A DNA stretch of 64,000 bases from a bacterium. Lineage in GTDB: Bacteria > Patescibacteriota > Minisyncoccia > UBA6257 > 02-FULL-45-10c. The stretch is from positions 16,648 through 80,647 of the forward strand of contig JAUYKI010000010.1 in NCBI GenBank assembly GCA_030700025.1, in the 5' to 3' direction. The notes under the pieces were generated by a model. It was not told the DNA's origin, searched no databases, and saw nothing but the letters and a program-made list of their open reading frames with translations. Shown here one piece after another: positions 2,938-61,363 of the stretch. Position numbers and translations under genes: made by a program. How positions within the stretch are numbered: position 1 is the first letter of the stretch; the number at the start of each line of letters is the position of its first letter.

Positions 2938-3061
2938 ATCCCGTTAGAGACAACTTAAATTTTTATAAAAAGGCAAAGTGGAGTTAAAAAATATAAAACA
3001 TAGATTATTAATTAAATCGGTCTTTTACGACCATCTAAAGATGGTCTGCCTCTAACGGGAT
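2938..3061 (-). repeat. family A inverted-repeat (MITE-like) element E1
   Basis: terminal inverted repeats ATCCCGTTAGAG...CCTCTAACGGGAT, internal 7-bp hairpin next to one end, AT-rich interior; homologous to E2/E3/E4. Confidence 0.6.
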
Positions 3062-3233
3062 GGATATATTATACCAAATAATAGAAATTCGCAATAATCT
3101 ATAGTGTTAATAACCTCTTGGGAGACGTTGTGCTTTCCCTGCTTTTAATATTGACAAAAAACTAATTTGAATATAAAATATTTCCGAGCTTGGTTCTCTA
3201 AGAACCTGGCAAAAATAAGGAGGTGCTATAGCC

Positions 3234-3440
3234 ATGGCTGATTGCAATCACTGTTCCTTGCAACGCATTCGCAGCAGAGCCAAGCAAGAAAAAAAGAAGG
3301 TAACTCTGCGAGGCGATCGCGGCGGAACGAGCGTTTACGTCCATCCCCGCAATGTGAAAATTAACCGGCTGAGCGATGCCGAAAGGGAAAGATACCGCGC
3401 GTCCTGGATGATGGAACTTTCCGACCACTGTTGTTGCTGA
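3234..3440 (+). CDS. small Cys-rich hypothetical protein (68 aa)
   Basis: AAGGAGG RBS 9 nt upstream; promoter-like TTGACA/TATAAA upstream; CxxC at N-terminus and CCC at C-terminus. Confidence 0.45.
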   Translation: MADCNHCSLQRIRSRAKQEKKKVTLRGDRGGTSVYVHPRNVKINRLSDAERERYRASWMMELSDHCCC

Positions 3441-3447
3441 ATATCGC

Positions 3448-3478
3448 GCGGTCGCCTAAAGCGACCGCTTTTATTTTT
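3448..3478 (+). terminator. rho-independent terminator
   Basis: GCGGTCGC-CTAAA-GCGACCGC hairpin followed by a T-run. Confidence 0.7.
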
Positions 3479-3519
3479 AATTGACGAAGCGCCTCTAAAA
3501 ATTTATTATTCTAACAAAC

Positions 3520-3592
3520 GCACCCATAGCTCAGTTGGTAGAGCAACTCCCTCTTAAGGAGATGGTCGTAGGTTCGATCCCTACTGGGTGCA
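3520..3592 (+). tRNA. tRNA-Lys(CTT), no encoded CCA
   Basis: cloverleaf: acceptor gcaccca/tgggtgc, D arm gctc/gagc, anticodon loop ctCTTaa, T arm gtagg-ttcgatc-cctac. Confidence 0.85.
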
Positions 3593-3676
3593 CACTTCGG
3601 CAGGGCTCAGCGCAAGCACTTCAACAGTTCGGCATAAGCCCAATAAAAAATTCCCTTGCGTTACGCCGGGGAATTT

Positions 3677-4423
3677 TTATTCAGGCAATAAAGTTCCGAT
3701 TAACCAAATACTAAAAATACCTAAGATCATAATTAGAATATGCGCGAATTCCCGAACGCCAGTTTTGTGGCGCAACTCCGGAATTAAATCCGAAATAGAA
3801 ATATAAATAAAAGATCCGGCGGTAATGCTAAGCACTATCGGAATATACGGCTCAAGAGCGCTCCGAAAGATATAACCTAATATCGCTCCGGCCGGCGTCA
3901 TTAAGGCCGCCGCCAAATTATATTTCAAGATTTTCCATCGAGGATATCCATTATGAAGCAAGATGCCAAAATCGCTGATTTCTTGCGGAACCTCGTGGAA
4001 AAATACCGCTACCGTAGTCGCAATGCCCGTAGGAATAGAAATTAAAAAACTTAAAGCAATAGCAATGCCATCCAAAAAATTATGCAAAGCATCGCCGATA
4101 ATAACCGTTAAGCTAAAATCATGGATGTCGCATTTTTCCTGATCGTGGCAATGATAAAAATTTAAAAGCTTTTCTAAAATATAAAAAAGTATAATGCCGG
4201 TTACAAAAGCAATAAAAATGGCTGATTCGGAAACATTCCCGGCTAAACTTTCCGGCAAAAGTTCAAAAATCGCCGCGGCCATCAAAGAGCCGGCGGCAAA
4301 ACTCAAAAGATAAATAGAAAGCCTCTTGGCTAATGCCTCATTAATAAGGAGCAGTATCCCGCCCAGCATCGCTACCACGCTTCCCACCAAGCTCGCTATT
4401 AAAATAATCAGAAAAAGCGTCAT
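3677..4423 (-). CDS. zupT: ZIP-family zinc/iron permease (ZupT-like)
   Basis: 248 aa, 8 TM helices; HEVPQEISDFGILL ZIP signature. Confidence 0.8.
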   Translation of the reverse strand: MTLFLIILIASLVGSVVAMLGGILLLINEALAKRLSIYLLSFAAGSLMAAAIFELLPESLAGNVSESAIFIAFVTGIILFYILEKLLNFYHCHDQEKCDIHDFSLTVIIGDALHNFLDGIAIALSFLISIPTGIATTVAVFFHEVPQEISDFGILLHNGYPRWKILKYNLAAALMTPAGAILGYIFRSALEPYIPIVLSITAGSFIYISISDLIPELRHKTGVREFAHILIMILGIFSIWLIGTLLPE

Positions 4424-4466
4424 TAAACCTAATTATAACGGTAAAATTCCGATTAGCAATTTTTAA

Positions 4467-4495
4467 TTGACTTTTTGTCTATTTAGGAGTAATAT
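4467..4495 (+). promoter_or_regulatory. sigma70-like promoter for the acyl-CoA dehydrogenase gene
   Basis: TTGACT - 17 nt - TAATAT; ATTCGTT-GAAAA-CGAATAC hairpin in the leader. Confidence 0.45.
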
Positions 4496-4577
4496 ATAGG
4501 CGAAGTTCCTTGAAAAAGCCGAATCATTCGTTGAAAACGAATACTCGGCCGAACAAACGGATCAGGGGAGGATAGCC

Positions 4578-6488: not shown

Positions 6489-6492
6489 AAAA

Positions 6493-6516
6493 ATACCCCG
6501 CTAGCGGGGTTTTTAA
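6493..6516. terminator. bidirectional terminator between the ACAD gene and aceA
   Basis: ACCCCG-CTAG-CGGGGT hairpin with A/T runs on both sides. Confidence 0.6.
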
Positions 6517-7779
6517 TTATTTAAATTGATCTTTTTCAGTTGAGCCGTCCATTGCGGAAGTGGAGGTCTCACCGCCAGAGGCCGTCTGCGCTACTTCATC
6601 AAAGTAACCGGTACCGACCAATTCCTGGTGCTTCACTCCGGGATAGCCGTCTTTCTCTTTGGCGAATTCTTCCGTCTGAAGGTCCACGTACGCCGGCATT
6701 CCGCGTTTCGCGAAATCCTGCGCCAGCTTAAAAGTCGCCAGCATCAGCGCGTGGACTCCCGCCAATGTTACAAACTGGAACTTATAGCCCAGCTTGCCCA
6801 GTTCATCCTGGAAATTCGCCACTGCTTCTTGAGGCAGTTTCGTCCAGTTAAACGACGGAGACAGGTTATAGGCCAAAAGTTTTCCAGGAAATTCCTTGTG
6901 AATCGCTTCTGCAAATTGCCTCGCTTCCGCCAAATCCGGATTAGAGGTTTCATACCAAAGCAAATCCGCGTAAGGCGCGTAAGCCAAAGAGCGCGCAATC
7001 GCGCAATCCATGCCGCCGCGCATCCGGTAAAAACCTTCGGGCGTTCTTTCGCCGGTCAAAAACGGCTTATCGCGGTCATCAATATCGTTGTTCACCAGAT
7101 AAGCGCCGTGCGCGTCAGTCCTGGCAATGATAACCGTGGGAACTCCCAGAACATCCGCCGCCTCCCGCGCCGAACTCAAGGTCCAGATAAACTGGCTAGT
7201 GGAAACTAGAACTTTTCCGCCCAAATGGCCGCACTTTTTTTCCGAACCCAGCTGGTCTTCAAAATGCACTGCCGACGCGCCGGCTCTAATCATCTTCTTC
7301 ATCAATTCAAAAGTATGATCTTTACCCCCGCCAGATTCACCATCAGCCACAATCGGCGCAAACCAATCCCGCTGTTCCCGATTCTTCAAACGCTGTTTCT
7401 CATCTTCCCGCTTAAAAGCGTTGTTAATCCGCTGAACAACATCCGGAACGCTGCGCACCGAATACAAACTCATATCCGGGTAAGTTTCCAAATCGCTGTT
7501 AGCATCAGCCGCGACTTGCCAACCGCTCATGTAAATCGCTTTTTGGCCGGCCGCCACCATGGCCACTGCCATTAATCCGGTATAAGCGCCCAGCGCCTTG
7601 ATGTAAGGTTCGGTATTCAGCATGTGCCAGAATTTTTCCGCGCCTAATCGCGCCAGAGTATGTTCCACCAAAACCGTTCCGCGCAAACGCAAAACCTGTT
7701 CCGGCGCATAATTCCTCTGAACGCCGTTCCATCTCCCGCCGAAAGCCCATTCGTCCCGCAAACGCCCCGCTTCGTTCAT
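6517..7779 (-). CDS. aceA: isocitrate lyase
   Basis: 420 aa; KKCGHLGGKVLV active-site signature; full-length colinearity with AceA. Confidence 0.9.
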   Translation of the reverse strand: MNEAGRLRDEWAFGGRWNGVQRNYAPEQVLRLRGTVLVEHTLARLGAEKFWHMLNTEPYIKALGAYTGLMAVAMVAAGQKAIYMSGWQVAADANSDLETYPDMSLYSVRSVPDVVQRINNAFKREDEKQRLKNREQRDWFAPIVADGESGGGKDHTFELMKKMIRAGASAVHFEDQLGSEKKCGHLGGKVLVSTSQFIWTLSSAREAADVLGVPTVIIARTDAHGAYLVNNDIDDRDKPFLTGERTPEGFYRMRGGMDCAIARSLAYAPYADLLWYETSNPDLAEARQFAEAIHKEFPGKLLAYNLSPSFNWTKLPQEAVANFQDELGKLGYKFQFVTLAGVHALMLATFKLAQDFAKRGMPAYVDLQTEEFAKEKDGYPGVKHQELVGTGYFDEVAQTASGGETSTSAMDGSTEKDQFK

Positions 7780-7896
7780 GTCTGTCCTCCTGCCTAGAGT
7801 TTCGAAGTGCTGGGGAGAATTATAACAATAAAAATTATTCTCGTCAATAGCTTTTAAAAAATAAAAATCCCCCGACCAAAGTCAGGGGTATTTTTT

Positions 7897-9516: not shown

Positions 9517-9593
9517 AGCTTTACGCGAAGGAGGGCTTGCCTGTTTTCAAACAGCGTATATTAATTTAAGAGATTTCGAGCCTTAAGTCAAAT

Positions 9594-12342: not shown

Positions 12343-12939
12343 TTATTTCTTCCCCGTCTTGATAATCTCGTCCACTACTCCATAATCTTTAGCTTCCGCG
12401 GCGGTTAAATGAAAATCTCGGTCGGTATCTCGTTCTATTTTAGCCAGCGGCTGACCGGTATGCTTAGCCAAAATTTGGCTTAACCGCTCCTTAATCCGCA
12501 AGATATGCTTGGCGGCAATTTCAATTTCCACCGCCTGGCCTTCCGCCCCGCCCATTACCTGGTGAAGCAAAATTTCCGCGTTCGGCAAAGCCACCCGCTT
12601 TCCTTTTTTTCCGGACGCCAAAAGCACCGCGCCCATAGAAGCCGCCATGCCCACGCAAATCGTGGAAACGTCCGGCTTGATATATTGCATAGTATCGTAA
12701 ATCGCCATGCCAGCGGTTACCGAACCGCCCGGAGAATTAATATAAAGCTTGATATCCCTTTTCGGATCTTCGTGTTCCAAAAATAAAAGCTGGGCAATTA
12801 CCGTATTGGCAACGCCATCGCTAATCGGGCCCGACAAAAAAACAATCCGTTCTTTTAAAAGACGCGAATAAATATCATAAGCCCGCTCGCCATTTTGGGT
12901 TTTTTCTATAACCGTAGGGATAAGGTATTCGTTTTCCAT
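12343..12939 (-). CDS. clpP: ATP-dependent Clp protease proteolytic subunit (copy 2)
   Basis: 198 aa; [14 protein letters not shown]; its ATG lies inside the inverted repeat of element E2. Confidence 0.9.
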
Positions 12940-13049
12940 CCCGTTAGAGGCAGGTTGCCAAAGGCAACCGTAACTTGGCCGTTTTAATTACAATCGACAT
13001 ATTTATATTTTGAATTTTGATTATCATAATTTATTTTGTTTAGTTGCCT
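12938..13049 (+). repeat. family A inverted-repeat (MITE-like) element E2
   Basis: CCATCCCGTTAGAGGCAGG...TTGCCTCTAACGGGAT; internal GGTTGCC-AAA-GGCAACC hairpin; interior homologous to E4. Confidence 0.65.
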
Positions 13050-13276
13050 CTAACGGGATTCCATTCCTTTACTTTTTGTGCTGTCTTTTGGCAAATTCCT
13101 CTAATTCTTCCTCGGTTACCGGCGCGTCCGCTTCCCGGAATTTTTCAACTTTTTCCGGAGTCATTGCCGGATCAATAGTCGGCTTAACTTCTTTTGGTGA
13201 AAATTTTTCTGGCATAGTTTTATTTTAATTAATTTTTATAATTTCGTAGATTCGTACTCTTTCGTATTTAGTAGCT

Positions 13277-24493: not shown

Positions 24494-24539
24494 ATACTAT
24501 ATAGTAGCAATATAATCGGGCTGTAGTATACCGGTAGTA

Positions 24540-24647
24540 TCCCTCACCCTTTGTTATAACGGAGTGTCGTATAGTGGTAGTATACACGCTTCGGGTGTGT
24601 GTGGTCTGGGTTCGATTCCCAGCACTCCGACAAGAAAGGGTGAGGGA
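24540..24647 (+). repeat. family B paired inverted repeat F1 enclosing the inner tRNA
   Basis: TCCCTCACCCTTT (24540-24552) perfectly complementary to AAAGGGTGAGGGA (24635-24647). Confidence 0.65.
24560..24630 (+). tRNA. tRNA-Pro(CGG)-like (inner copy), no encoded CCA
   Basis: acceptor cggagtg/cactccg; anticodon arm cacgc-ttCGGgt-gtgtg; T arm ctggg-ttcgatt-cccag; D arm non-canonical (uaua/uaua), needs tRNAscan-SE. Confidence 0.55.
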
Positions 24648-24710
24648 CGCTTCGGGTGCGTGAGTACTGGGTTCGATTCCCAGCAGCCCGACCAAATTAA
24701 AATTAAATAT

Positions 24711-29438: not shown

Positions 29439-29606
29439 GCCGCCGCTCAATCCCCAGCCCTCGCGCTTACTGGAAAGCTGTCTCACGGTTAAATCCTCCC
29501 TTGCCCGTCCGTAGTCTCGCGAAGCGAGACGTAGGCGGGTTTGAATTTTCAAGCTGGCTATTCCCAGCACTGGTGGCAGGATACCATAAAAATAAATCTT
29601 TGTCAA

Positions 29607-29678
29607 ACCCCGTTAGAAGCCGCCCTCGCTAAAGCGAGTGGCTACGGCCACCTAGGGGCGGTCTGCTTCTAACGGGGT
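29607..29678 (-). repeat. family A inverted-repeat element E3 (short, GC-rich interior)
   Basis: CCCCGTTAGAAGC...GCTTCTAACGGGG 13-bp terminal inverted repeats; nested hairpins inside. Confidence 0.55.
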
Positions 29679-29725
29679 CAAATTTACCCAATTCCCAAGG
29701 TGGAGTATCATGAGTATATAAACCC

Positions 29726-30745: not shown

Positions 30746-30823
30746 TCTGATTACGACTAAACCAATCGAAAATTAATTTTCGATTGGTCGCCCGATCAAA
30801 TTTATAATATAAATTTGATTTAG

Positions 30824-30857
30824 GGGCCTATGGTATAGTGGCAGAATGCGGCATTCG
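30824..30857 (+). pseudogene. diverged copy of the tRNA-Ala 5' half
   Basis: gggcctatggtatagtggcagaatgcggcattcg aligns with gggctcatagtaaagtggtattacgcagcattcg of the intact tRNA-Ala 300 bp downstream. Confidence 0.45.
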
Positions 30858-30858
30858 T

Positions 30859-31158
30859 CCCGATGTATAAATTTTGAAATGTTCTATACATATATTTTAA
30901 AATCATATAAAGAAGGTTCCTATTACATAGGTAGTTGTGAGAATGTAGACAAAAGATTACGATTACACAATCAAGGTTTTGTGACATCAACTAAACGATA
31001 TAAGCCATGGCAATTAGTATATAGTGAGAAGTTTGATAATTTAATTGGCGCGCGACGTCGAGAAGCTCAGATAAAATCGTTGAAGAAAAGAAGCGCGGTA
31101 GAAAAACTGATAAGAACATTTCAAAATTTATACATCGTGGATCCGCGATAACTTTGGT
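30859..31158 (+). mobile_element. AT-rich GIY-YIG cassette bounded by 24-bp perfect inverted repeats
   Basis: CGATGTATAAATTTTGAAATGTTC at 30861-30884 and its exact reverse complement at 31114-31137; sits between a tRNA-Ala 5'-half copy and the intact tRNA-Ala. Confidence 0.5.
30879..31151 (+). CDS. small GIY-YIG nuclease (YhbQ/UPF0213-like)
   Basis: YTYILKSYKEGSYYIGSCENVDKRLRLHNQG matches GIY-x10-YIG...R...H...N; about 30% GC; alternative start at 30846. Confidence 0.7.
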   Translation: MFYTYILKSYKEGSYYIGSCENVDKRLRLHNQGFVTSTKRYKPWQLVYSEKFDNLIGARRREAQIKSLKKRSAVEKLIRTFQNLYIVDPR

Positions 31159-31229
31159 GGGCTCATAGTAAAGTGGTATTACGCAGCATTCGCATTGCTG
31201 AGGCTCGGGTTCGATTCCCGATGGGTCCA
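31159..31229 (+). tRNA. tRNA-Ala(CGC), no encoded CCA
   Basis: acceptor gggctca/tgggtcc with G3:U70 identity pair; D arm gtaa-agtggta-ttac; anticodon arm cagca-ttCGCat-tgctg; T arm tcggg-ttcgatt-cccga. Confidence 0.8.
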
Positions 31230-31524
31230 CATGAGTCCACCAAAGTTATCGGGACATTGCCAAGGCGCGAGTTTCCCGACTTTCATTAAAGCTACCGAAA
31301 GAAGTCGAGGATCCTCGATGGCTTTGCCATCGGGACGATTCCGCCTAGGTCCACCACAAACGAATACGCCACCCGGGTGGCGTATTGAATTTGACAAATA
31401 ATTACTAAGGGTGTATTATATGAAATAATTCCTATCTGTATGGATAGGTCGCTCCGCAAGGGGTCAGGCGGTAAGAATCCTGCCGCAACTTAGGGTTCAC
31501 AGCACATTGAAAAGGAGGTGCCGT

Positions 31525-33332: not shown

Positions 33333-34274
33333 TTACTTTTCAATCTTTTCGCTCAGTTGCCGGAAGGACCCTTTGCCATAAGTTTTTTCTACCAGCCGGG
33401 CTATTGGCAAAAGCCGGCCGGTTAAAACTGCTTTCGCGAATAAATCAAAAACTTCTTCCTCCGATTGAAAATCAGGCTGATTTTTTTCATACAATTCCGC
33501 GATTAATTTTTGTAAGTGCCGCCTCTCTTCCGGATAACTATAAAAATGCAGAACCGCTTTTGCTTGTCCGCCTTGTTCAGCAAAAGAAATAAAAGCCACA
33601 TCGCCAATCGAACGGATTAAGTCAATTTTTTCCACTTCATTTACTTCTCCCAAGTCTTTTTGGAGAACCGGCAAGTTTTTAAGCGTTTCTCGGCAAAACC
33701 GCCTGGTCAGCTCTTCCACAATCGCTTCATCCGCGTCTTTAAAATGCGCTTCTTTTTTATCACCGGTTTTATAAAGCTTAAATCCTTCCCGCCGCGGACG
33801 CACAAACTTCGGCCGGCCTTCTTTTGTGGTCGCTTCTACCGATTGGAAAGAATTCAAATGCAGTAATTCATGGACTAATCCTTTGGCAAAAGCCAAATTA
33901 GGCTTAGTCTTCGCGGCATTAAACCAAATGCTCTGCAAAGCGGCATAATAATGCCCGCCGACATTTTCTCCGAAATATTGTTCCGGCAAAATATGGACTT
34001 TGTCTTCGGAAATAACCAGCGGCTGTCCGCCATAGCGCTCCAAAAATTTCGGCAGTTCTTGATTAATAAAATCAATAACCATTCTCTGCTCCAGCGTTTT
34101 TTCCAGCTCTCCTTCTTTTTGTTCCTGTTCTTGATCAAAAAGAAATCCGCCCAATGCCAGAGCTTCCTGTTCCTTATCTTCTTCCAAGCCTACTATCCGG
34201 ACCAATCCGGATTTTCTGTCCCACTTAATTTCCGGGCTGGCTTCGGGCGGTTGTCTTTTAGGAAACTTTTCCAT
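33333..34274 (-). CDS. hypothetical HExxH-motif protein (313 aa)
   Basis: GLVHELLHL motif; ATG embedded in the family B inverted repeat (GGGTGAGGG-ATG). Confidence 0.5.
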   Translation of the reverse strand: MEKFPKRQPPEASPEIKWDRKSGLVRIVGLEEDKEQEALALGGFLFDQEQEQKEGELEKTLEQRMVIDFINQELPKFLERYGGQPLVISEDKVHILPEQYFGENVGGHYYAALQSIWFNAAKTKPNLAFAKGLVHELLHLNSFQSVEATTKEGRPKFVRPRREGFKLYKTGDKKEAHFKDADEAIVEELTRRFCRETLKNLPVLQKDLGEVNEVEKIDLIRSIGDVAFISFAEQGGQAKAVLHFYSYPEERRHLQKLIAELYEKNQPDFQSEEEVFDLFAKAVLTGRLLPIARLVEKTYGKGSFRQLSEKIEK

Positions 34275-34404
34275 CCCTCACCCTTGAAGGGCCTAACGCG
34301 TTTCCGCGTTTTTGTTTCAAGATTAATTTAAGATTAAGCTCAATCGACATTTTAAATAATAAACTAATTATGGGCAATCTCACAGCCCTTCCAAGGTGAG
34401 GGAT
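34273..34404. repeat. family B paired inverted repeat F2
   Basis: ATCCCTCACCCTTG...CAAGGTGAGGGAT flank 105 bp of AT-rich sequence; abuts the xerC stop. Confidence 0.6.
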
Positions 34405-37185: not shown

Positions 37186-39234
37186 ATGGACTTACAACGA
37201 AAACAATTTAAAACAGAATTTAACGGAAAACCATTAACTTTGGAGGTTTCCCAATTAGCCGGACAAGCCAATGCCGCGGTAATGGGAACTTACGGCGACA
37301 CCACAGTTTTAGTAACCGCGGTCATGAGCAAAAAGGACAAACCTGGGGATTATTTCCCATTAATGGTCAATTACGAAGAAAAGCACTATGCCGTTGGCAA
37401 AATTTTAGGCAGCCGCTTTATGAAACGCGAAAGCCGGCCTTCGGACGAAGCAGTTTTAACCGGCCGTTTAATCGACCGGACTATCCGTCCGCTTTTTGAT
37501 CAAAGAACCCGCCGGGAAGTCCAGGTGGTAATAACCGTGCTTTCTTACGACGGAGAAAATGATCCGGATTTTATCGGACTTTTAACTTCTTCGGTCGCGC
37601 TGGCCACTTCTTCTATTCCCTGGAACGGCCCGGTAGCCGGAGTACGAATTACCAACGGCGACCAATTAAATACTTTTGTAGCCGGCACCGCCGATAAAAT
37701 CAACATGGTGGAATTTGAAGGCAATGAAGTCGCGGAAAGCGAAGCCGTCCAAGCCTTTACCCAAGCCCAGGTCCAGATTAAAGAATTAGTTTCCTGGCAG
37801 AAAAAAATTATTTCGGAAATTGGAAAGCCGAAATCCGAAATTAAACTCAATGAGCCAAAAGCGGAACTGCTGGCAGCTGCTAAAGATTTCTTAAAAGGAA
37901 GATTGGAAAAAGCGGTTTATAATCCGAGCAAAGCAGCGATGTATGAAAACTTAGATTCGCTTAAAGAAGAATTGAAAACCGCGCTCACGGAAAAAGAATT
38001 TTCCGAAGGCGACATTTCCGCGGTAGACGCTATTTTAGAAGAAGAAGTAAACCAATTAGTACACGAAAAGATATTAAAAGAGGAAAAGCGGCCGGATGGG
38101 CGGAAATTAAACCAGTTGCGCGAATTACACGCCGAAGCCGGAATCTTAAAACGACTTCACGGCTCCGCTTTATTCGTCCGGGGCAACACCCAATCTTTGG
38201 CTGTAACTACTTTAGGCGCTCCCGGAGACCAACAGCTTCTGGAAACCATGGAATTTTCCGGAAAGAAAAGATTCATGCTTCATTATAATTTTCCGCCATT
38301 TTCCACCGGAGAAGTGGGCAGAATGGGCGCTCCGGGCCGGAGAGAAATCGGCCACGGCGCTCTAGCGGAAAAAGCTTTGCGCCCGCTTATTCCGACTCAA
38401 GAAGAATTCCCTTATACCATCCGGGTAGTTTCCGAAATTCTCTCCTCTAATGGATCTTCTTCTATGGCTTCAGTTTGCGCCGGCAGTTTATCTCTGATGG
38501 ATGCCGGAGTGCCGATCCGCCGGCCAGCCGCCGGAATCGCCATGGGATTAATTCTGGATGAATCGGGAAAACAATTTAAGGTTCTCACCGACATCCAAGG
38601 GCCGGAAGACCACCACGGCGATATGGATTTCAAAGCTGCCGGAACGGAAAACGGAGTTACCGCAATCCAAATGGACGTAAAAGTTAACGGCGTTACCGTG
38701 GAAATTTTGGAAAAAACTTTGATACAGGCCAAAGAAGCCCGGCTCCAGATTTTAAAAACTATTACCGGAGCGCTTCCGGCGCCGCGCGCGGAACTTTCTC
38801 CGTTCGCGCCCCGGATTATCACTTGGAAAATTAATCCGGAAAAAATCGGCGAACTCATCGGCCCCGGCGGAAAAAATATCAACGGCATTATTGATGAAAC
38901 CGGCGTAACCGCGATTGATATTGAAGATGACGGCTTGGTGCTGATTACTTCTGTTGATGCCGCGGCCGCGGAAAAAGCTTTAGCCCGCGTTAAAGCTAGC
39001 ACTAAAGAATTCCAAATCGGGGATATTGTTGAAGGCAACATTGTAAAAATTCTGGAATTCGGCGCTATCGTGGAATTTGACGGCCGCGACGGCATGATCC
39101 ACGTTTCCGAACTTAAGGAAGGATTTGTTAAAAAAGTTGAGGACGTGGTTAAGCTGGGAGATTTTGTCCGGGCAAAAATCGTGAAAATGGATAACGGAAA
39201 AATCGGGCTTTCAATAAAACAACTCAACAAATAA
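37186..39234 (+). CDS. pnp: polynucleotide phosphorylase
   Basis: 682 aa; two RNase PH domains, KH (GPGGKNINGI) and S1 (GDIVEGNIVKILEFGA) domains. Confidence 0.9.
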   Translation: MDLQRKQFKTEFNGKPLTLEVSQLAGQANAAVMGTYGDTTVLVTAVMSKKDKPGDYFPLMVNYEEKHYAVGKILGSRFMKRESRPSDEAVLTGRLIDRTIRPLFDQRTRREVQVVITVLSYDGENDPDFIGLLTSSVALATSSIPWNGPVAGVRITNGDQLNTFVAGTADKINMVEFEGNEVAESEAVQAFTQAQVQIKELVSWQKKIISEIGKPKSEIKLNEPKAELLAAAKDFLKGRLEKAVYNPSKAAMYENLDSLKEELKTALTEKEFSEGDISAVDAILEEEVNQLVHEKILKEEKRPDGRKLNQLRELHAEAGILKRLHGSALFVRGNTQSLAVTTLGAPGDQQLLETMEFSGKKRFMLHYNFPPFSTGEVGRMGAPGRREIGHGALAEKALRPLIPTQEEFPYTIRVVSEILSSNGSSSMASVCAGSLSLMDAGVPIRRPAAGIAMGLILDESGKQFKVLTDIQGPEDHHGDMDFKAAGTENGVTAIQMDVKVNGVTVEILEKTLIQAKEARLQILKTITGALPAPRAELSPFAPRIITWKINPEKIGELIGPGGKNINGIIDETGVTAIDIEDDGLVLITSVDAAAAEKALARVKASTKEFQIGDIVEGNIVKILEFGAIVEFDGRDGMIHVSELKEGFVKKVEDVVKLGDFVRAKIVKMDNGKIGLSIKQLNK

Positions 39235-39367
39235 TCCCTCACCCTTGCGAAAGCTAACCCCGCCTTAAGGCGGGGTTTTTGCTTCAACAAAAAATAATTG
39301 CGCTAAAAATTACGATTTCTAATTAAATTATGGATTATATAATAATACTTTCGCAAAGGTGAGGGAT
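39234..39367. repeat. family B paired inverted repeat F4 (contains the pnp terminator)
   Basis: ATCCCTCACCCTTGCGAAAG...CTTTCGCAAAGGTGAGGGAT; interior holds AACCCCGCC-TTAA-GGCGGGGTTTTT. Confidence 0.6.
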
Positions 39368-39412
39368 TTTGTTTTCCACCATTCCGTTGTTCCCATATGA
39401 TATACTAAAAAT

Positions 39413-47126: not shown

Positions 47127-48212
47127 CTACTTAGCGAATGGATTCTTCGCGTTCCTAACCTCAAAGTGAAGATGACACCCGGTTGGGCCGTGAACATTTC
47201 CGGTATTGCCGATATAACCAATGGAATCTCCCTTTAATACATAATCGCCCGGCGAAACAACATTTCTTTGATTGTGGGAATATTTCGTGAAAGTGCCATT
47301 GGAGTGCTCGATTAAAATATAATTTCCGTAACCATCGTTCCAGCCGTTATTGGAAACTGATTCTAAAATTAATCCTTCGGCCGCGGCATAAATCGGCGTT
47401 CCGCAAGCATTGGCAATGTCTACGGCATTATAATTGTGAAGACGGCCCCAATTCCAGCCGGTAGTCGGAATTGCGAAATAACCGGATAAGTCGGGCAAAC
47501 TCGCCAACGATGCCAGCCGGGAACTTTGAACCGGCTTAGCGTCCGGAATAATAATATTAGAACCAACCACCAATTCCTGCCGAGCGCTAAGATTCAGCTG
47601 TAAAATTCTTTGAACATCAATGGAATAAAGATTAGCGATGGATTCCAAAGTTTCACCGGCCTGCACTTGGTGCAACACTCCGGACACCGGTAAAATCATT
47701 ATTTCCTGCCCCGGCGATAATAAGCGCGCTTTTACGCTCGGATTCGCCCAAAAAATCGTATTTAAAGAAATGCCGAAATTCGCGGCAATTTTGGATAAAT
47801 TATCTCCTGATTGGACTTTATAAATCAACAATCCATCCCTCGTCGGCAAAACATTACTCAGCGGATTGCCCGAATTCAGCAAGGCGTCGCTATCCACGAT
47901 AATAAAATTAATTCCGCCCTCGCCGCTGAATGACCCGCTATCTATCGGGAAAAAACTTTCCACGCTGGCGGTATTGCCGACAACCAGAATATTTTCCGCG
48001 CCGAAAGCCAGCGAATAAAAGCGTTCGCTGTCTATGGGTTGCCGAGAGTAGAACAAAAGGAGTAGATTAGTAACAGACGCAACCAAAACTAAAACAACCG
48101 GCATAGCGGTTGTCAGATTCTCTCTAAACCAGGATAAAATTTTACCCAATTTATTTTTCAACCCTATCATTATAACAATGAGCCGTCCGAAACTCAATCC
48201 CACACATAACAA
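47127..48212 (-). CDS. LysM-domain M23-family peptidase
   Basis: two LysM repeats (YKVQSGDNLSKIA, HQVQAGETLESIA); C-terminal M23 motifs (HNQRNVVSPGDYV, GCHLHFEV). Confidence 0.8.
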   Translation of the reverse strand: MLCVGLSFGRLIVIMIGLKNKLGKILSWFRENLTTAMPVVLVLVASVTNLLLLFYSRQPIDSERFYSLAFGAENILVVGNTASVESFFPIDSGSFSGEGGINFIIVDSDALLNSGNPLSNVLPTRDGLLIYKVQSGDNLSKIAANFGISLNTIFWANPSVKARLLSPGQEIMILPVSGVLHQVQAGETLESIANLYSIDVQRILQLNLSARQELVVGSNIIIPDAKPVQSSRLASLASLPDLSGYFAIPTTGWNWGRLHNYNAVDIANACGTPIYAAAEGLILESVSNNGWNDGYGNYILIEHSNGTFTKYSHNQRNVVSPGDYVLKGDSIGYIGNTGNVHGPTGCHLHFEVRNAKNPFAK

Positions 48213-48310
48213 AGACCGTAAGATAATTGAACTATAACCATGATATTAAAATCAAAATGTCGCATTAAATTAAAAACTGAAGAATTGCGAAAAACTTCGC
48301 AGTCTTTGTT

Positions 48311-50110
48311 ATGGGTGGGATCAATCCATTAAATAATTTATCCGAACAGCAAAAAAAAGCTGTCCAGCATCCCGCCGGGCCGATTTTGATTGCCGCCGGC
48401 GCCGGATCCGGAAAAACCCACACCCTCACCAGCCGTTTGGCGCATTTATTAAAATCCGGGGTTCGGCCGGAAAATATTATTGCCATTACTTTTACCAATA
48501 AGGCGGCCAAAGAAATGCGGAGCCGGGTTAATGGTCAGGGGTCAATAGTTAATAGTCTGTTCATCGGGACCTTCCACTCGCTCGGCGTTCAAATTTTGAA
48601 AAATGAAGCTGGGCTGGTTAATCGAAGCCGGAATTTTACTATTTTTGACGAAGACGATTCCCAAAGCCTGCTCAAAAATATTTTGAAAGAGTTAAATCTT
48701 GCCAAAGAAAAATTCAATCCCATGAAAGTTTCCAACCGGATTTCCCAGATTAAAAATGAGGTTTTAGACGATGATGAATTAAAGCCAGAGAATAGTTATG
48801 AAAAAATTATTTTATCGGTTTACGCGAAATACGAAGAAGCGCTCAAACAATATAATGCTTTTGATTTTGACGATTTAATTGAAAAGGTGGTGCGGATTTT
48901 CCGGAATCATCCGGAGATTTTAGAAAAATACCAAAACCGCTGGCAGCAAATCTTGGTGGATGAGTATCAGGACGTTAACACCAGCCAATATCTTTTGATA
49001 AGAATGCTGGCGCAAAAACACCAAAATCTTTTTGTTATCGGCGACGACGCTCAAAGCATTTATTCTTTCCGCGGTTCCGATTTCCGCAATTTCCTGAATT
49101 TTGACACCGACTGGCCAACCGCCGCCGTAATTAAACTGGAAGAAAATTACCGCTCCACTAAAAATATCATAGCTTCGGCTTCGGCCCTGATTCAAAATAA
49201 TAAGCTGCAAAAGCCGAAAGGCCTTTGGACCCAGAATCAAGAAGGATCGCTAATCCGCGTCAGCGCTTACCAGAGTCCGGAGGAAGAAGCCTGGAGCATT
49301 GCCGAAAAAATTCGGGAATTGCTCAAGGCCGGAGAAAATATCAAAGATATCGCGATTCTTTACCGCACCAATGCCCAGTCCCGCGCCCTGGAACAGGCAA
49401 TGATCCAAAACCAAATTCCTTATGAAATTTTCGGGGGGTTAAAATTCTATGCCCGGAAAGAAATCAAGGACTTAATCGCCGGTTTGCGATACGCCACTAA
49501 CCCCAAAGACAGCCTAAGCGCGGAACGGATAGTGAAGAATTTCACCAAAACCCAAAGCAAAGCGCTACTGGAAGAACTCCCTCGATTAGCCGGAGAATTA
49601 TCCATAATTGAGCTATTAAATTATATTTTGACCAACACGAATTATTTTGAATACCTGGAGACCCACTTTAAAAATCCGGATGAACGGCGGGAAAACATTA
49701 AAGAATTGATTCATTTCGCTTCCGGATTTAAAAACGCCCAGGAATTTTTGGAACAAATCGCCTTGGTATCCAGCCTGGATGGCCGGCCCAAGCTGGAAGA
49801 AAATGCCGTTAAGTTTATGTCTATTCATTTAGCCAAGGGGCTGGAATTTAATAATATTTTTATTGCCGGCGCCAACGAAGGATTGTTGCCGCACGAAAGA
49901 TCGCTGGGCAACAATGACGACTTGGAAGAAGAACGGCGTTTAATGTATGTGGCCATGACCCGCGCCAAAAAAAATCTTTTTATCGGCTTTTATGATTTGC
50001 CGTCCCGTTTTTTAGGAGAATTGCCGCCGGAACTGATTGAATTCCAAAAGACCACCAGTTACGGAACCGAGAACCGAGATTGGGACGACGAGACAATTTA
50101 TCTGGAATAA
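48311..50110 (+). CDS. pcrA: UvrD/PcrA-family DNA helicase
   Basis: AGAGSGKTHTLTSR Walker A, DEYQDVN motif II, helicase motifs through VI; short 599-aa form. Confidence 0.85.
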   Translation: MGGINPLNNLSEQQKKAVQHPAGPILIAAGAGSGKTHTLTSRLAHLLKSGVRPENIIAITFTNKAAKEMRSRVNGQGSIVNSLFIGTFHSLGVQILKNEAGLVNRSRNFTIFDEDDSQSLLKNILKELNLAKEKFNPMKVSNRISQIKNEVLDDDELKPENSYEKIILSVYAKYEEALKQYNAFDFDDLIEKVVRIFRNHPEILEKYQNRWQQILVDEYQDVNTSQYLLIRMLAQKHQNLFVIGDDAQSIYSFRGSDFRNFLNFDTDWPTAAVIKLEENYRSTKNIIASASALIQNNKLQKPKGLWTQNQEGSLIRVSAYQSPEEEAWSIAEKIRELLKAGENIKDIAILYRTNAQSRALEQAMIQNQIPYEIFGGLKFYARKEIKDLIAGLRYATNPKDSLSAERIVKNFTKTQSKALLEELPRLAGELSIIELLNYILTNTNYFEYLETHFKNPDERRENIKELIHFASGFKNAQEFLEQIALVSSLDGRPKLEENAVKFMSIHLAKGLEFNNIFIAGANEGLLPHERSLGNNDDLEEERRLMYVAMTRAKKNLFIGFYDLPSRFLGELPPELIEFQKTTSYGTENRDWDDETIYLE

Positions 50111-54954: not shown

Positions 54955-54969
54955 ATAAATTAATAAACT

Positions 54970-55875
54970 ATGGCCGACATCATACAATTAAAACCATCTA
55001 TCGCCGATTCTTTTAAGGCCTTGCCCGAAAGCATTAAGGACTGGCTGGGTTCGGATTTAATCACTAATTATATTTCCGATATTAATAAGAAACTGGGAAT
55101 TAAAGGAAAAAAGCGCTCTATTATTCCCCGGCTAATAGTTCGATTAGTAACTAAGGATTTATTGCCGGCCGATTTTATCGGCGAACTGGCTAAAACATTA
55201 AATGCTCCGCCAGCCGCCGCTAAAGCAATTGCCCAGGAAATTTTTGATAAAACTCTTCAGCCGATTGAAATCGGGTTGCGCCGAGATATCGGTATAGATG
55301 TCAAAACTATTTTCTTTGGAAAGCCCAGGGAGGTTAAAGAGGGGGGATTAAACCCATTAGAAGCGATGGAATTAGATGCCGCTCCCGCGCCGTTAGCCTT
55401 TGAAGAAAAACCAGCCGAATTAAAACCAACTGTGCCCGTTAAAACAATCGTTGAAACTCCGACCTTTTCGCGGAGCGTTGAGAAAGAAACCTCCGCCAAC
55501 GGAGAAACTCCTATACTTATATATAAGGAAGGCACGGTCGGCCGGATTCCCATAGCCAAGCCGGAAATTACTCTTAAACCGAGAATGGTCCCGCCTTTGC
55601 CCTCCGAAGCCTTGCGCGAAGGAGGGTCCTTGCCTGCTAGTAGCCCTGCCTACCGGCAGGCAGGTTCACGCGAAGGCACGGCGCCATTACCCGCCCGCAA
55701 TCCATTAACACAAGCTTCTTCCCAGCCATCAACGGCCAATGAACCAAAGATCGCCCGAGTGGTTCATTACAGCGACTTCTTTACTCCGCTCAACAACTTT
55801 GGCCTGGATAAAAATCCCAAACAAACTGATTCCGCCTTCGTGGACGGCAATGTCGTTGATTTAAGATTTATTTAA
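54970..55875 (+). CDS. hypothetical protein (301 aa)
   Basis: no motif; Pro/Ala-rich middle. Confidence 0.45.
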   Translation: MADIIQLKPSIADSFKALPESIKDWLGSDLITNYISDINKKLGIKGKKRSIIPRLIVRLVTKDLLPADFIGELAKTLNAPPAAAKAIAQEIFDKTLQPIEIGLRRDIGIDVKTIFFGKPREVKEGGLNPLEAMELDAAPAPLAFEEKPAELKPTVPVKTIVETPTFSRSVEKETSANGETPILIYKEGTVGRIPIAKPEITLKPRMVPPLPSEALREGGSLPASSPAYRQAGSREGTAPLPARNPLTQASSQPSTANEPKIARVVHYSDFFTPLNNFGLDKNPKQTDSAFVDGNVVDLRFI

Positions 55876-56491: not shown

Positions 56492-56509
56492 CGTAATACC
56501 AATATACAA

Positions 56510-56920: not shown

Positions 56921-56960
56921 TTAGTATTATTAGTATGAATTAGTATATTAGCATTACATT

Positions 56961-59324: not shown

Positions 59325-59333
59325 CCAAATACG

Positions 59334-59732
59334 ATGGAAAATAACGAAAGAAAAATTAGCACCGTGGAAGCAATTTTAGCCGTAATTTTTGTCGCTAGCG
59401 CGGATTTAATGGAGTTTTTAGCCAGCCTACTTGCCATTCCGATTCAGGTTATTCCGGTAGTCGGCCAAGGATTGGGCGCCGCATTAATGCTTTTTGCCTG
59501 GCTCTATGGCTTTACCGTAACCGCCCTAACCCTTACTTGGATTTATTTTAAGGGATTGAGTATGCGCTGGTTTTTGGGCGGCAGCGGCTTGGAGCTGATT
59601 CCAGGCATTAACGCGCTTCCTTTGCGCACCGCGGCTATTTTGGCGGTAATTGCCGAAGACCGGTTGCCACTGCTCAAAAAAGCTTCTGGTTTAGTTAAGC
59701 CAACAGCCAAATCAGCCGTAGCCACAAAATAA
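59334..59732 (+). CDS. small membrane protein (132 aa, 3-4 TM)
   Basis: 10 nt after the virB4 stop; hydrophobic. Confidence 0.45.
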   Translation: MENNERKISTVEAILAVIFVASADLMEFLASLLAIPIQVIPVVGQGLGAALMLFAWLYGFTVTALTLTWIYFKGLSMRWFLGGSGLELIPGINALPLRTAAILAVIAEDRLPLLKKASGLVKPTAKSAVATK

Positions 59733-59740
59733 AATCGGGT

Positions 59741-60493
59741 ATGAAATTACAAATCACAAATTATCCCGATTCTGCGGGAATCGAGGACTCTCGATTGCAA
59801 AGCAATCGGAGCAAATCACAAATCATTTCTCGAGGTGTTTTGTTTTTAATTATTGTTTTGATTTTTGGAAATTGGAGTTTAAGCGAAGCCCAGACCGCTC
59901 CGGAATTTATAATTTCCTGGCGGGCAATGAATTACGTTCCTTCCGGTTATCAGGGAAAAGCCTTGCCTATTAATTCAACGCCGATTGAAATCGGCTTGGA
60001 TATCGTAGAATCCGGGAAAATCGTTAGTTTAACTGCTAATGAAATCCGCTGGTTTTTCAACGGCGATTTATTGCGATCCGGCAACGGGCTAAAAACTATC
60101 CGGCTTAACAGCAAAAGCGCCAGCCAGCAAATCCGAGTCGTAGTCGCGAACTATAAAGGGGTGAATTTGGAAAAAATATTTATTATTCCAGCGCAAACTC
60201 CTAAACTGGTTATTGATACCCGCTTGCCTAATTCCAACGCCGGTTTAGGCAAATACCGTTTAGAGGCTCTGCCATATTTTTTCAACATCTTTTCGCTTCA
60301 AGAATTAAAGTTTGACTGGTCCGCTAATAATCAGCCGGTTAGCGGTGAAACAGGAGATCCGCAAATTTTGGATGTGGATTTCTCTTCTGAAAGCGCGCCG
60401 GCCGAAACTAATATCCGCATTTCTGCCATTGTTTCCAATCGTTTTAATCCGGTAGAATTAAGCAGTGGCGCAGTAGAATTAAATGTCCGATAA
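59741..60493 (+). CDS. hypothetical secreted/membrane-anchored protein
   Basis: N-terminal anchor (VLFLIIVLIFGNW); 1-nt gap to the next gene. Confidence 0.45.
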   Translation: MKLQITNYPDSAGIEDSRLQSNRSKSQIISRGVLFLIIVLIFGNWSLSEAQTAPEFIISWRAMNYVPSGYQGKALPINSTPIEIGLDIVESGKIVSLTANEIRWFFNGDLLRSGNGLKTIRLNSKSASQQIRVVVANYKGVNLEKIFIIPAQTPKLVIDTRLPNSNAGLGKYRLEALPYFFNIFSLQELKFDWSANNQPVSGETGDPQILDVDFSSESAPAETNIRISAIVSNRFNPVELSSGAVELNVR

Positions 60494-61219
60494 ATGCCTA
60501 AAAAAACATTTTTAACAATTTTCTTTTTACTAATAGCCGGTTCGGCATTTGCCGTCCAATTGTCCGTTCCGATTCCCTGTCAGAGCACTTCCCTGACTGG
60601 GCAATGCGCCGGCGGATCCGGAACCGATATTTCTGATCCCGCCACCTATGTTGCCAGGATTTACCAATTCGGCCTGTTGGCCGCCGGCGTTACCGCTTTA
60701 GGCGCTTTGGTTTTCGGCGCCACGAAATATATTCTCTCAGCCGGCAATGTCTTTGACCAAGGCGAAGCCAAAAACCAGATACTTAGCGCTATTTATGGCG
60801 TTCTTCTATTATTAGGCGCTTACTTGATTTTAAATACCATTAATCCGGATCTGGTGAGGCTGAAAAATCCTTCTTTAGGAGGAACTTTTAGGGCCCAAGG
60901 CGAATGCGTTACTACCAGTGGCCTTCCGGGGACATTCCAAAATGGCTCTTGCGTCGCTAGCGGGGAACGGACTGCCACTTCTGTTTGCCCGGCCGGACAG
61001 CATTTGGAAGTAAATAATATCGTAGGTAATAGCTGCGTGCCGGATTGCCCGGCCGGACAGCACTTGGTTGGCACTACTTGCCAGCCAATTCAGCCCTCGC
61101 AAGATCAGACCGGCGCGGGCGTTCCCGGCTCTACTGGACAGCCTTTAGGACCGGGGGGAATTCCTTGCCCGGGCGGAACAAATCCAGTGCAAGGCCCAAC
61201 GGGTTTAGAGTGCCGTTAA
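60494..61219 (+). CDS. pilin-like protein with Cys-rich repeat C-terminus (possible VirB2/TrbC-like)
   Basis: signal peptide, two hydrophobic segments (LLAAGVTALGALVFG, ILSAIYGVLLLLGAYLIL), then a duplicated CPAGQHL..C module. Confidence 0.35.
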   Translation: MPKKTFLTIFFLLIAGSAFAVQLSVPIPCQSTSLTGQCAGGSGTDISDPATYVARIYQFGLLAAGVTALGALVFGATKYILSAGNVFDQGEAKNQILSAIYGVLLLLGAYLILNTINPDLVRLKNPSLGGTFRAQGECVTTSGLPGTFQNGSCVASGERTATSVCPAGQHLEVNNIVGNSCVPDCPAGQHLVGTTCQPIQPSQDQTGAGVPGSTGQPLGPGGIPCPGGTNPVQGPTGLECR

Positions 61220-61244
61220 AGATAATTAAATTAAATGGGGATGG

Positions 61245-61363
61245 ATCCCGTTAGAGGCAACTAAACCTAAAATATTATGCCAATCAAAATTAAAAATATA
61301 AAAAGTCGGAAATATTTAATCGGCCTGCTACGGTCGCCTATGGCGACCTGCCTCTAACGGGAT
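61245..61363 (-). repeat. family A inverted-repeat (MITE-like) element E4
   Basis: ATCCCGTTAGAGGCAAC...CCTGCCTCTAACGGGAT; hairpin GGTCGCC-TAT-GGCGACC; interior homologous to E2; right inverted repeat contains the ATG of the 61362 gene. Confidence 0.65.

Follow-up and report, generated by a model that had tools for sequence, protein, structure and literature searches.

The 64,000-nucleotide stretch analysed here (the window), from a metagenome-assembled genome (MAG) of the candidate phyla radiation (CPR)/Patescibacteria, contained four copies, E1 to E4, of an inverted-repeat element designated family A. These are recently inserted miniature mobile elements, and two of them adjoin the start codons of clpP and of an open reading frame (ORF) beginning at 61362. 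Full-length members of the family with the same repeats and a GIY-YIG nuclease gene were found in other sequences, suggesting that the window copies are non-autonomous derivatives of tiny GIY-YIG-encoding inverted-repeat elements of CPR bacteria, resembling MITEs (miniature transposable elements with inverted repeats). We give this overall explanation a probability of roughly 0.7.

The inverted repeat (T)CCCGTTAGARGC / GCYTCTAACGGG(A) was common to all four window copies. A search with the 13-mer CCCGTTAGAGGCA, allowing up to two mismatches, gave eight matches in the window, which formed four inverted pairs with a left arm and its complement on the right, whereas shuffled windows gave a mean of 1.23 matches and a maximum of 5, and none of 100 shuffles reached 8. 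The claim of a first-pass annotation that four copies share a terminal inverted repeat was thus borne out by 8 arm matches against 1.2 expected. The elements, their flanks and their host genes were as follows.

Repeat-arm pairs: 2940/3059 (E1); 12940/13057 (E2); 29609/29676 (E3); 61247/61361 (E4).
2939..3060, plus strand: E1, family A miniature element with repeat TCCCGTTAGAGAC...GCCTCTAACGGGA; evidence: repeat match, fold and empty site in L122.
2934-2939 and 3060-3065: E1 flanking hexamers, ATGTAT and ATGGAT.
3029-3046: E1 subterminal hairpin, stem GACCATC/GATGGTC.
12939..13058, minus strand: E2, family A miniature element oriented with clpP; evidence: repeat match, fold and empty sites.
13058..13064, minus strand: upstream target copy of E2, ATGGAAT, 4 nt past the stop of a conserved 48-codon ORF (13215-13069).
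12933..12939, minus strand: downstream target copy of E2, ATGGAAA, which is the annotated clpP start and is identical to the start in L251 (ATGGAAAACGAATACC).
12953..12969, minus strand: E2 subterminal hairpin GGTTGCC-TTT-GGCAACC, adjoining the gene-proximal repeat.
12343..12939, minus strand: clpP, host gene of E2 (Pfam CLP_protease, E = 1.9e-84).
29608..29677, plus strand: E3, a short diverged family A copy of 70 nt with C...G tips; evidence: repeat match and fold.
29602-29608 and 29677-29683: E3 flanking repeats, GTCAAAC and GTCAAAT.
61246..61362, plus strand: E4, family A miniature element; evidence: repeat match, fold and empty sites in L254 and L255.
61241-61246 and 61362-61367: E4 flanking repeats, ATGGAT and ATGGAC, the latter being the start of ORF 61362.
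61332-61348: E4 hairpin, stem GGTCGCC/GGCGACC.
61362..62447, plus strand: hypothetical protein of 361 amino acids, host gene of E4.

The right end of E2, first placed at 13049, lay at 13058/13059. E2 and E4 stood at start codons. E3, a member of a diverged 68-70-nt subtype, touched no start codon (a second 70-nt copy of this subtype was found at L096:6941-7010). E1 lay between the TATAAT box and the ATG of recG and pointed away from recG. Hairpins of 7 bp, with three different stem sequences, abutted one arm in E1, E2 and E4, so that the 6-7-bp hairpin with an adjacent CGTA (TACG on the other strand) was present as described at 3029-3046, 12953-12969 and 61332-61348. Folding of the four copies gave long hairpins with a basal stem of 14-15 bp formed by the repeat; the fold energies ranged from -38.5 to -46.5 kcal/mol, and the z-scores relative to shuffled sequences from -4.1 to -6.2. 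The interiors of E2 and E4, noted previously as alignable, were 80% identical and were each other's best matches. In size the copies were like MITEs, measuring 70-122 bp with longest internal ORFs of 26-27 codons and no mobility gene. No Rfam family matched at the elements at the gathering threshold, which only seven tRNAs passed in the window. The ATG of clpP (12939-12937, minus strand) directly followed ...CTAACGGG, the final base of E2 being the A of this ATG, and the ATG of ORF 61362 was placed likewise. Both starts proposed in the first-pass annotation agreed with the NCBI annotation of the MAG contig (113,948 nt, locus tags Q8P76_), in which they open proteins of 198 and 361 amino acids. 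A lone degenerate repeat-end match at 55348-55364 of the window (GCTTCTAATGGGTTTAA, three mismatches) lay inside a coding region without a partner arm and was probably due to chance.

Close relatives of the window proteins were fetched with their flanks, and the insertion sites were compared; at the E1, E2 and E4 sites the host proteins were 86-96% identical, except in L255 (56%).

E1 site: L122 (RecG at least 90% identical), TATAATATATGCATCGCAATGACT with no element; window, TATAATATATCCAT-E1-ATACATCCAATGACT.
E2 site: L248, L249, L251 and L253 (ClpP 96, 94, 91 and 89% identical), no element; L251, AAAAAGTAATGGAAAACGAATACC; window, AAAAAGTAAAGGAATGGAAT-E2-ATGGAAAACGAATACC.
E3 site: L123, position occupied by another family A element, ~113 nt long, whose interior is unrelated.
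E4 site: L254 (86%), TTAAATTTATGGACTGGAAACG; L255 (56%), no element; window, ATGGAT-E4-ATGGACTGGAAACG.

The sites of E1, E2 and E4 were thus empty in relatives, each empty site held a single copy of the flanking repeat, and the leader sequence was not conserved there. In the relatives clpP started with ATGGAAAAC (ATGGAA) and ORF 61362 with ATGGACTGG (ATGGAC), and in the window ATGGA(A) stood on either side of the element at both genes. Because the start codons were present in element-free relatives and the motif occurred on both sides, the start codons pre-existed and were duplicated by the insertion. Of the two earlier alternatives, that insertion either created or captured these codons, capture by duplication was therefore retained and creation was discarded. 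Similarly, of the idea that the repeat supplies the ATG, what remained was at most the A of the downstream ATG, from the outermost T...A pair; the rest of the codon does not come from the repeat. Within a genome, interiors had a median identity of 0.74 and reached 0.95 (0.88-0.95 among three copies of a single MAG); between genomes they were less similar, with a median of 0.61 and a 95th percentile of 0.71, in line with proliferation inside genomes. Nested and tandem copies also occurred (for example in L120, L094 and L066); in L120 the interrupted host element could be reconstructed, and the inner copy was flanked by GCAGGC/GCAGGT. The MITE-like mobile nature proposed for the copies was confirmed by the relatives without elements at the E1, E2 and E4 sites and by the many copies that stood before unrelated genes elsewhere.

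Around E2, a 48-codon ORF (MPEKFSPKEVKPTIDPAMTPEKVEKFREADAPVTEEELEEFAKRQHKK; 13069-13215, minus strand) between tig and clpP was conserved in L248 and L251. Its stop was 3 nt before the clpP ATG in L248 and overlapped that ATG in L251; in the window, it preceded by 4 nt the ATGGAAT that E2 left as the upstream target copy. A candidate decayed older element upstream of E2 (TTAGAGGAA...TAAAGGAATGGAA) was rejected; it was the end of this 48-codon ORF and also occurred in element-free relatives. The only other contig with the exact ClpP of the window, L001 (Logan contig of SRR13727534), ended inside E2, 67 nt upstream of the ATG, which is consistent with repeats breaking short-read assemblies.

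Scanning of metagenomes for the long form of family A gave at least 120 contigs, and 98 intact copies were analysed. Loci L055 and L074 contained 275-bp units with the ends CCCGTTAGAGAC...GTCTCTAACGGG; the left flank was ATGAAT in L055 and ATGGT in L074, and the right flanks were ATGAAA or ATGGAC. The 275- and 278-bp elements had family A ends (CCCGTTAGAGAY...RTCTCTAACGGG) and thus represented the longer, gene-bearing form with the same ends that the definition of a MITE requires. The whole 275-bp unit was one ORF encoding a GIY-YIG nuclease of 94 amino acids (Pfam PF01541, E = 1e-16); PF10544 (T5orf172) was just above threshold for one of two nuclease proteins. The Pfam search of the nuclease proteins gave no match to a transposase or recombinase family, and no NCBIfam model named the nuclease, the sole match there, a group I intron endonuclease, being below threshold. 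A protein search with the nuclease gave 2296 clusters, and the best 120 of these 2296 were ~94 amino acids long and 66-97% identical. In an alignment of 29 sequences, an N-terminal MNPVRD was nearly invariant in the full-length sequences and a C-terminal RFLSLTG throughout. MNPVRD, and FLSLTG followed by the stop codon, are the translation of the two terminal repeats, which consequently lie inside the nuclease coding sequence. Residues Y11, Y13, Y24, R32, H38, E70 and N84 were invariant, Tyr, Arg, His, Glu and Asn being the GIY-YIG catalytic positions. The protein consisted of the catalytic domain only, with no attached DNA-binding domain, and copies were located at many unrelated loci. The nearest solved structures were UPF0213 1zg2 (5e-11) and 1ywl (1.4e-5) and SLX1 7wme (9e-4).

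Among the 98 intact long copies, the commonest left flank was ATGAAT (29 copies), and the commonest right flanks, ATGAAA, ATGAAT and ATGAAG, together accounted for 43 copies. The TGA of the nuclease gene overlapped the regenerated junction ATG (ATGA) in 61 of the 98, and a long ORF followed 47. In 16 copies the first in-frame ATG of the nuclease was the one in the flank; in most others it lay within the element, 16-21 nt from the end. In L125 a long unit was situated within an operon, in the order upstream stop, 4 nt, ATGAAT, element, ATGAAT, and the next gene overlapped by ATGA. Short and long forms occurred together: 24 short copies were found on 19 of the 120 listed contigs bearing long copies. 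The window genome itself hosts this class of GIY-YIG mini-element, although with other ends.

30861..31137, plus strand: full-length GIY-YIG mini-element of another repeat family, with 25-nt perfect inverted repeats (CGATGTATAAATTTTGAAATGTTCT) and a nuclease ORF at 30846-31151.

The nuclease encoded at 30846-31151 was related to the family A nuclease (phmmer, 2.5e-11). GIY-YIG genes of different sequence subfamilies carried their own repeats (family A, window 30861-31137, L073 and L110), as expected if enzyme and ends co-evolve.

The short form was scanned in one genome per species with the pattern CCCGTTAGARGC-N70-100-GCYTCTAACGGG. The repeat was found on at least 120 genome contigs and so was not confined to the four window copies; the statistics below refer to 132 copies extracted from the listed contigs, with subsets of 101 (asymmetry readable), 94 (ORF at the junction) and 91 (pairing). 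The 80 contig titles among the matches listed comprised 62 CPR/Patescibacteria, 12 named 'bacterium' and 6 from other phyla, with Planctomycetota, Elusimicrobia and Bdellovibrionales among these. Neither the short nor the long form matched any of 2.9 million viral contigs, which gave no evidence for phage carriage. The 12-bp frame was constant across copies and the interior was variable, with four subtypes.

Subtype 1: common; second stem CGCGRTC/GAYCGCG.
Subtype 2: window type; local hairpin.
Subtype 3: GC-rich, 99 nt.
Subtype 4: 68-70 nt, including E3.

The repeat arms were paired in 100% of the 91 copies at 10 of 12 positions, and position 10 covaried strictly (A-T in 68, G-C in 21, G-T in none). 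The helix extended into the flanks, with T-A at position -1/+1 in 87 of the 91 and C-G in 3, and with A-T at position -2/+2 in 74 and G-T in 14. The repeat first described as 19 bp long therefore has a conserved part of 12-13 bp, extended by the flanking T/A pair. A second stem across a 4-nt bulge was paired at 71% of positions, compared with 17-32% in other registers. In place of this second stem, 16 of the 91 family members found in other genomes had a local hairpin like that of the window copies; 14 different stems were represented, and AC preceded each. Copies of the GC-rich subtype, 98-103 nt long (L013, L031, L053, L069, L095 and L109), had a conserved, apparently structured interior (...GATGAATGC...GCGAACACGGGGTTTAATGCCCCGTGTGAGC) and flanks of GTTTAC, GTTCAC or GTAAAC, and did not adjoin start codons. 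The C...G-tipped copies (L027, L061, L065, L066 and E3) had GTTGAC/GTTGAC or GTCAAC-like flanks containing TTGAC of the -35 box; the targets that this subfamily hits and rebuilds may be promoter elements instead of start codons.

An ORF of at least 60 amino acids began at the first base after CGGG (...CTAACGGG) in 94 of the 132 copies. Where the asymmetry was readable (101 copies), the ORF was always at the same end, preceded by (C/T)CTGC, and none diverged from the other end. The consensus of the upstream hexamer was ATGAAT (A in 71, T in 65, G in 61, A in 59, A in 75 and T in 88 of 94), and that of the downstream hexamer was ATGAAa. The check for target-site duplications gave a positive result: flanking hexamers agreed at five or six of six positions in 65 of the 132 copies, as against ~12 with shuffled partners, and other registers gave no signal. 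The duplication was 4-6 nt long and followed the pattern T-N-N-(N)-A, most often as (A)TGAA or (A)TGGA. With T...A as the outermost repeat pair, the downstream junction ...CTAACGGG-A-TGRA re-creates the ATG of the target gene, and the upstream target copy persisted as ATGRAT. The left hexamer ended in the T of the element and the right hexamer in the gene's own base, and the base before the duplication tended to equal the last base of the element in both T/A-tipped and C/G-tipped subfamilies. The 88 downstream proteins fell into 77 homology clusters. Among the downstream genes were those for prephenate dehydratase, RF-1, GDP-mannose dehydratase, LigT, PGK, a class II tRNA synthetase (GlyRS), a glycosyltransferase and ClpP; as these are mutually unrelated, the element is not the leader of a regulon.

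On the basis of these comparisons, the GIY-YIG nuclease would mobilise both the long and the short forms. Its relation to SLX1, together with the strict Watson-Crick ends and the conserved subterminal hairpin, suggested a structure-specific nuclease; it probably recognises the hairpin or cruciform formed by the repeats and the subterminal hairpin, and would act at its base. The targets resemble the element's downstream junction, and copying may use this microhomology as a primer. In an alternative scheme, a staggered cut of 4-5 nt would be made with a preference for targets resembling the element junction.

The host gene could plausibly be kept expressed by translational coupling through the hairpin. 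The predicted 14-15-bp helix pairs the first two bases of the AUG. Initiation would take place at the upstream ATG, at the ATG of the nuclease itself or, in the short copies, at a small ORF within the element, and ribosomes reading through the 3' arm would melt the stem that sequesters the AUG. Of the three frames through ...GCYTCTAACGGGATGA, one has a TAA 4 nt before the ATG, one has an overlapping TGA and one runs in frame into the gene; after terminating at the UAA or at the overlapping UGA, ribosomes may reinitiate at the AUG of the gene. The TAA frame was open for 28 codons on average, compared with 14.6 and 10.9 in the other two frames, and in 38 of the 94 copies it held an ATG-initiated ORF of 19-28 codons. 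Two such candidates, with coding capacity predicted, were present in the window.

12944..13027, minus strand: candidate 27-codon small ORF in E2, running through the hairpin and the gene-proximal arm, with TAA 4 nt before the clpP ATG.
61277..61357, plus strand: candidate 26-codon small ORF in E4 (MPIKIKNIKSRKYLIGLLRSPMATCL and stop), with TAA 4 nt before the ATG of ORF 61362.

Two other routes to expression were rejected. G-rich bases located 2-4 nt ahead of the upstream ATGAAT pointed to a Shine-Dalgarno site that would span the hairpin, but this was dropped because ordinary gene starts in the same genomes have no G-rich peak. Programmed ribosome bypass between the two ATGAA copies was rejected, since there is no stop after the take-off site and the empty sites already explain the repeat. 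At 312 ordinary gene starts (loci L002-L121 and the window), where no G-rich Shine-Dalgarno peak was seen, T occurred at -12 in 46% and A at -11 in 48%. This composition hints that many mRNAs are leaderless and that a -10 box lies immediately before the ATG; if so, the upstream ATGAAT would be both the transcript 5' end and the natural start of the nuclease ORF.

Other repeat families were observed in the window and in related loci. A family C element at 48197-48321 of the window had the ends ATCCCACACATAACAAAGAC / GTCTTTGTTATGGGTGGGAT, and the corresponding site in L124 was empty, with TCAAT present once. In L124 the UvrD-like gene (604 amino acids) starts ATG AGC CGC CCG AAA CTC AAT CCA, and the window element lies after codon 7, within the coding region. 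The annotated UvrD-like protein of the window (599 amino acids) restarts at an in-frame ATG inside the family C repeat (MGGINPLNN compared with MSRPKLNPLNN), so that there the repeat itself supplies the start codon. A family B pair, CCCTCACCCTTTG...AAAGGGTGAGGG, at 24541-24646 (region 24516-24697) enclosed a complete tRNA-Pro(CGG) gene (24560-24631) and interrupted a second tRNA-Pro(CGG) gene, the break falling between D-arm and anticodon stem. When the insert at 24541-24646 was deleted in silico, ARAGORN called tRNA-Pro(CGG) across the junction; the insertion appears to bring along a substitute for the tRNA gene that it breaks. Two more family B copies (ATCCCTCACCCTTG...CAAGGTGAGGGAT) were located at 34273-34404, filling the whole spacer from a stop (TAA-T-CCC) to the next gene start (GGG-ATG at 34274), and at 39236-39368, following a stop codon at 39232; in both there was a GC hairpin resembling a terminator, with a T run after it.

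Next to the window GIY-YIG mini-element at 30861-31137, positions 30822-30859 held a 5' fragment homologous to tRNA-Ala(CGC) and ending in the anticodon loop. A complete tRNA-Ala(CGC) gene (31159-31230) followed the mini-element inside its own 21-nt inverted repeat (31146-31166 / 31231-31251). The same order of 5' tRNA fragment, GIY-YIG mini-element and tRNA gene was found in L073. GIY-YIG mini-genes were also inserted into tRNA genes in L085 (~5.5-5.8 kb, minus strand), where 14 nt of the tRNA-Ser 5' end (GGAGAGGTGGCTGA) were directly repeated on the two sides of the insert and the nuclease TGA lay within the tRNA, and in L086:2983-3337, where the nuclease ORF, after a truncated tRNA, ran into a complete tRNA-Pro(TGG). 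Another family of repeats, CCCCACACC...GGTGTGGGG, occurred in several genomes (L007:3623-3728, L064:5944-6021, L088:1308-1487, L092:2912-2974 and L192:1148-1213), with flanking direct repeats in some copies, and other (A/T)CCC-tipped pairs were seen as well. CPR genomes thus appear to host many such repeat families. No full-length partner of families B and C was found in the 1.68 Mb of fetched sequence.

Several observations weigh against derivation of the window copies from GIY-YIG elements, or against parts of that explanation. No full-length family A copy, and no family A nuclease gene, was present in the 64-kb window, and related repeat-bounded shells there carried tRNA genes, so that the nuclease could be cargo. 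The preference for ATGAA, which starts 23% of ordinary genes in these genomes, together with loss of harmful insertions, may explain part of the association with start codons. The duplication could comprise 4-5 nt plus the T/A repeat tip, or 6 nt; at the empty site of family C, the base preceding the duplication did not match the last base of the element, which favours 4-5 nt plus a T...A tip. In the absence of a Shine-Dalgarno peak, arguments from ribosome binding do not apply, and the support for the small ORFs was statistical, drawn from copies related by descent, with a weak codon-position signal.

If the nuclease were indeed one of several cargos, alongside tRNA and filler, the MITEs would be moved by a conventional transposase or recombinase encoded elsewhere. 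Repeat-bounded window units with complete tRNA genes (24541-24646, tRNA-Pro; 31146-31251, tRNA-Ala) and the very different interiors enclosed by one 12-bp frame would fit such an arrangement, as would the absence of the nuclease gene from the window. However, the full-length unit leaves no space for another gene and has its repeats inside the nuclease coding sequence, the GIY-YIG subfamilies have their own repeats like transposase-end pairs, and the long and short forms share insertion rules and co-occur on contigs. No transposase was seen beside any copy, though no systematic search was made. We therefore regard this explanation as unlikely. Still less probable is that the elements are site-specific recombination cassettes, exchanged with look-alike ATGAA sites by a host Xer-like tyrosine recombinase. 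Joined ends (...CTAACGGG-ATGAAT-CCCGTTAG...) would form a core site of inverted repeat, 6-nt spacer and inverted repeat; the sixth flank base, T on the left and gene-specific on the right, is that expected for crossover within a 5-nt core; the targets look like the element's own right junction; and subfamily-specific flanks (ATGAAT, GTTGAC and GTTCAC) are retained. Against this, a recombinase was neither encoded by the elements nor associated with them, the family C empty site showed a plain 4-5-nt duplication with an extra A that mismatched the target, and the nested insertion at a non-ATG site (GCAGG, L120) indicated relaxed targets. Integron attC sites were considered an improbable identity: GTTAGAR/YTCTAAC fit the RYYYAAC/GTTRRRY cores only partly, and the hosts were housekeeping genes in mixed orientation; no integrase search was made.

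A fixed cis-regulatory RNA leader of particular genes (riboswitch-like, an RNase III site or a thermometer) has in its favour the stable conserved hairpin, which sequesters the first two AUG bases, and the covarying subterminal hairpins. The element was nevertheless absent from the corresponding loci of relatives whose proteins were 86-96% identical, preceded 77 unrelated gene families, had flanking duplications and no Rfam match, and in E1 faced away from the neighbouring gene. As the origin of the elements this reading is refuted, and its probability is very small; a secondary regulatory effect on host genes is possible.

Beyond the derivation of the window copies from GIY-YIG elements, there is a substantial chance, which we place slightly short of even, that the 275-bp units form a previously unrecognised class of prokaryotic DNA transposon, with one 94-codon GIY-YIG gene whose terminal codons are its own inverted repeats, and that they and their miniatures are harmless through insertion at start codons. 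Under the same tentative proposal, the units would borrow the initiation site of the host and return ribosomes to the regenerated ATG by stop-start overlap, and the related shells would act correspondingly on tRNA genes, through the replacement tRNA that they carry. If this is true, the 275-bp units are among the smallest autonomous mobile elements known, bringing the minimal autonomous size down to ~275 bp, and if the GIY-YIG protein moves the elements, it would add a new catalytic class to the few enzymes that drive prokaryotic DNA transposition. Genomes of roughly 1 Mb can bear dense mobile DNA, with clpP, pgk, prfA and glyS hit but not destroyed; such essential genes survive insertion because the start codon is rebuilt. 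For annotation, start codons beside ...CTAACGGG are to be read as insertion products and the upstream ATGAAT as a relic, and assemblies break in the repeats. Together with leader peptides, if these are made, the AUG-sequestering helix of 14-15 bp could couple or dampen expression for an appreciable fraction of CPR genes. The short conserved ends also provide a simple probe for strain-level variation in uncultured Patescibacteria.

A review of MITEs that covers Correia/NEMIS, ERIC and Rickettsia palindromic elements describes 'type II' MITEs and makes no mention of GIY-YIG or start codons (PMC10969869). By every structural criterion, the window copies are 'type II' MITEs (PMC10969869). They share with MITEs a length of ~70-125 bp, terminal inverted repeats, short flanking duplications, a gene-adjacent position, many copies per genome, hairpin-forming transcripts (predicted for family A) and only the ends in common with a long form (PMC10969869). 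Family A differs in that its long form encodes a GIY-YIG nuclease and not an insertion sequence (IS) transposase, in its orientation-specific insertion, mostly exactly on a start codon that is rebuilt, and in its spread over a superphylum with identical 12-bp ends. In the literature, of which coverage was incomplete so that novelty is not proved, we found no description of an autonomous partner with a GIY-YIG gene only, of a coding sequence containing its own terminal repeats, of orientation-specific start-codon insertion with regeneration of the ATG, or of spread across a superphylum.

Among proteins of solved structure, the UPF0213/COG2827 stand-alone GIY-YIG proteins and SLX1 are the nearest in sequence. 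SLX1 cleaves DNA that is branched or forms hairpins, an activity that would suit cruciform-forming element ends; to our knowledge, no mobile-element role or flanking repeats are known for UPF0213, COG2827 or SLX1 proteins. The IS200/IS605 elements and their miniature derivatives resemble family A in having subterminal hairpins and orientation-specific insertion beside a target motif that resembles the other end, but they use an HUH transposase and have no terminal inverted repeats and no duplication. Free-standing GIY-YIG homing endonuclease genes (phage T4 seg; I-TevI-type) are likewise selfish genes with a nuclease as the sole product, wedged between or into host genes whose function is spared. 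In contrast, the family A nuclease is a catalytic domain of ~94 amino acids without a DNA-binding domain, and the element is bounded by inverted repeats, occupies many non-allelic sites, has abundant gene-less derivatives and, unlike those genes, which include phage T4 members, had no match in the viral contigs. REPIN-RAYT systems share with family A a small nuclease gene flanked by the same inverted repeats as a population of short hairpin elements; the RAYT protein is an HUH/Y1 transposase whereas the family A gene encodes a GIY-YIG protein, and REPINs are intergenic, with no target duplication and no start-codon junction. By analogy, the closest parallels for family A would be the free-standing GIY-YIG homing endonuclease genes for the fold of the enzyme and REPIN-RAYT for the structure of the population.

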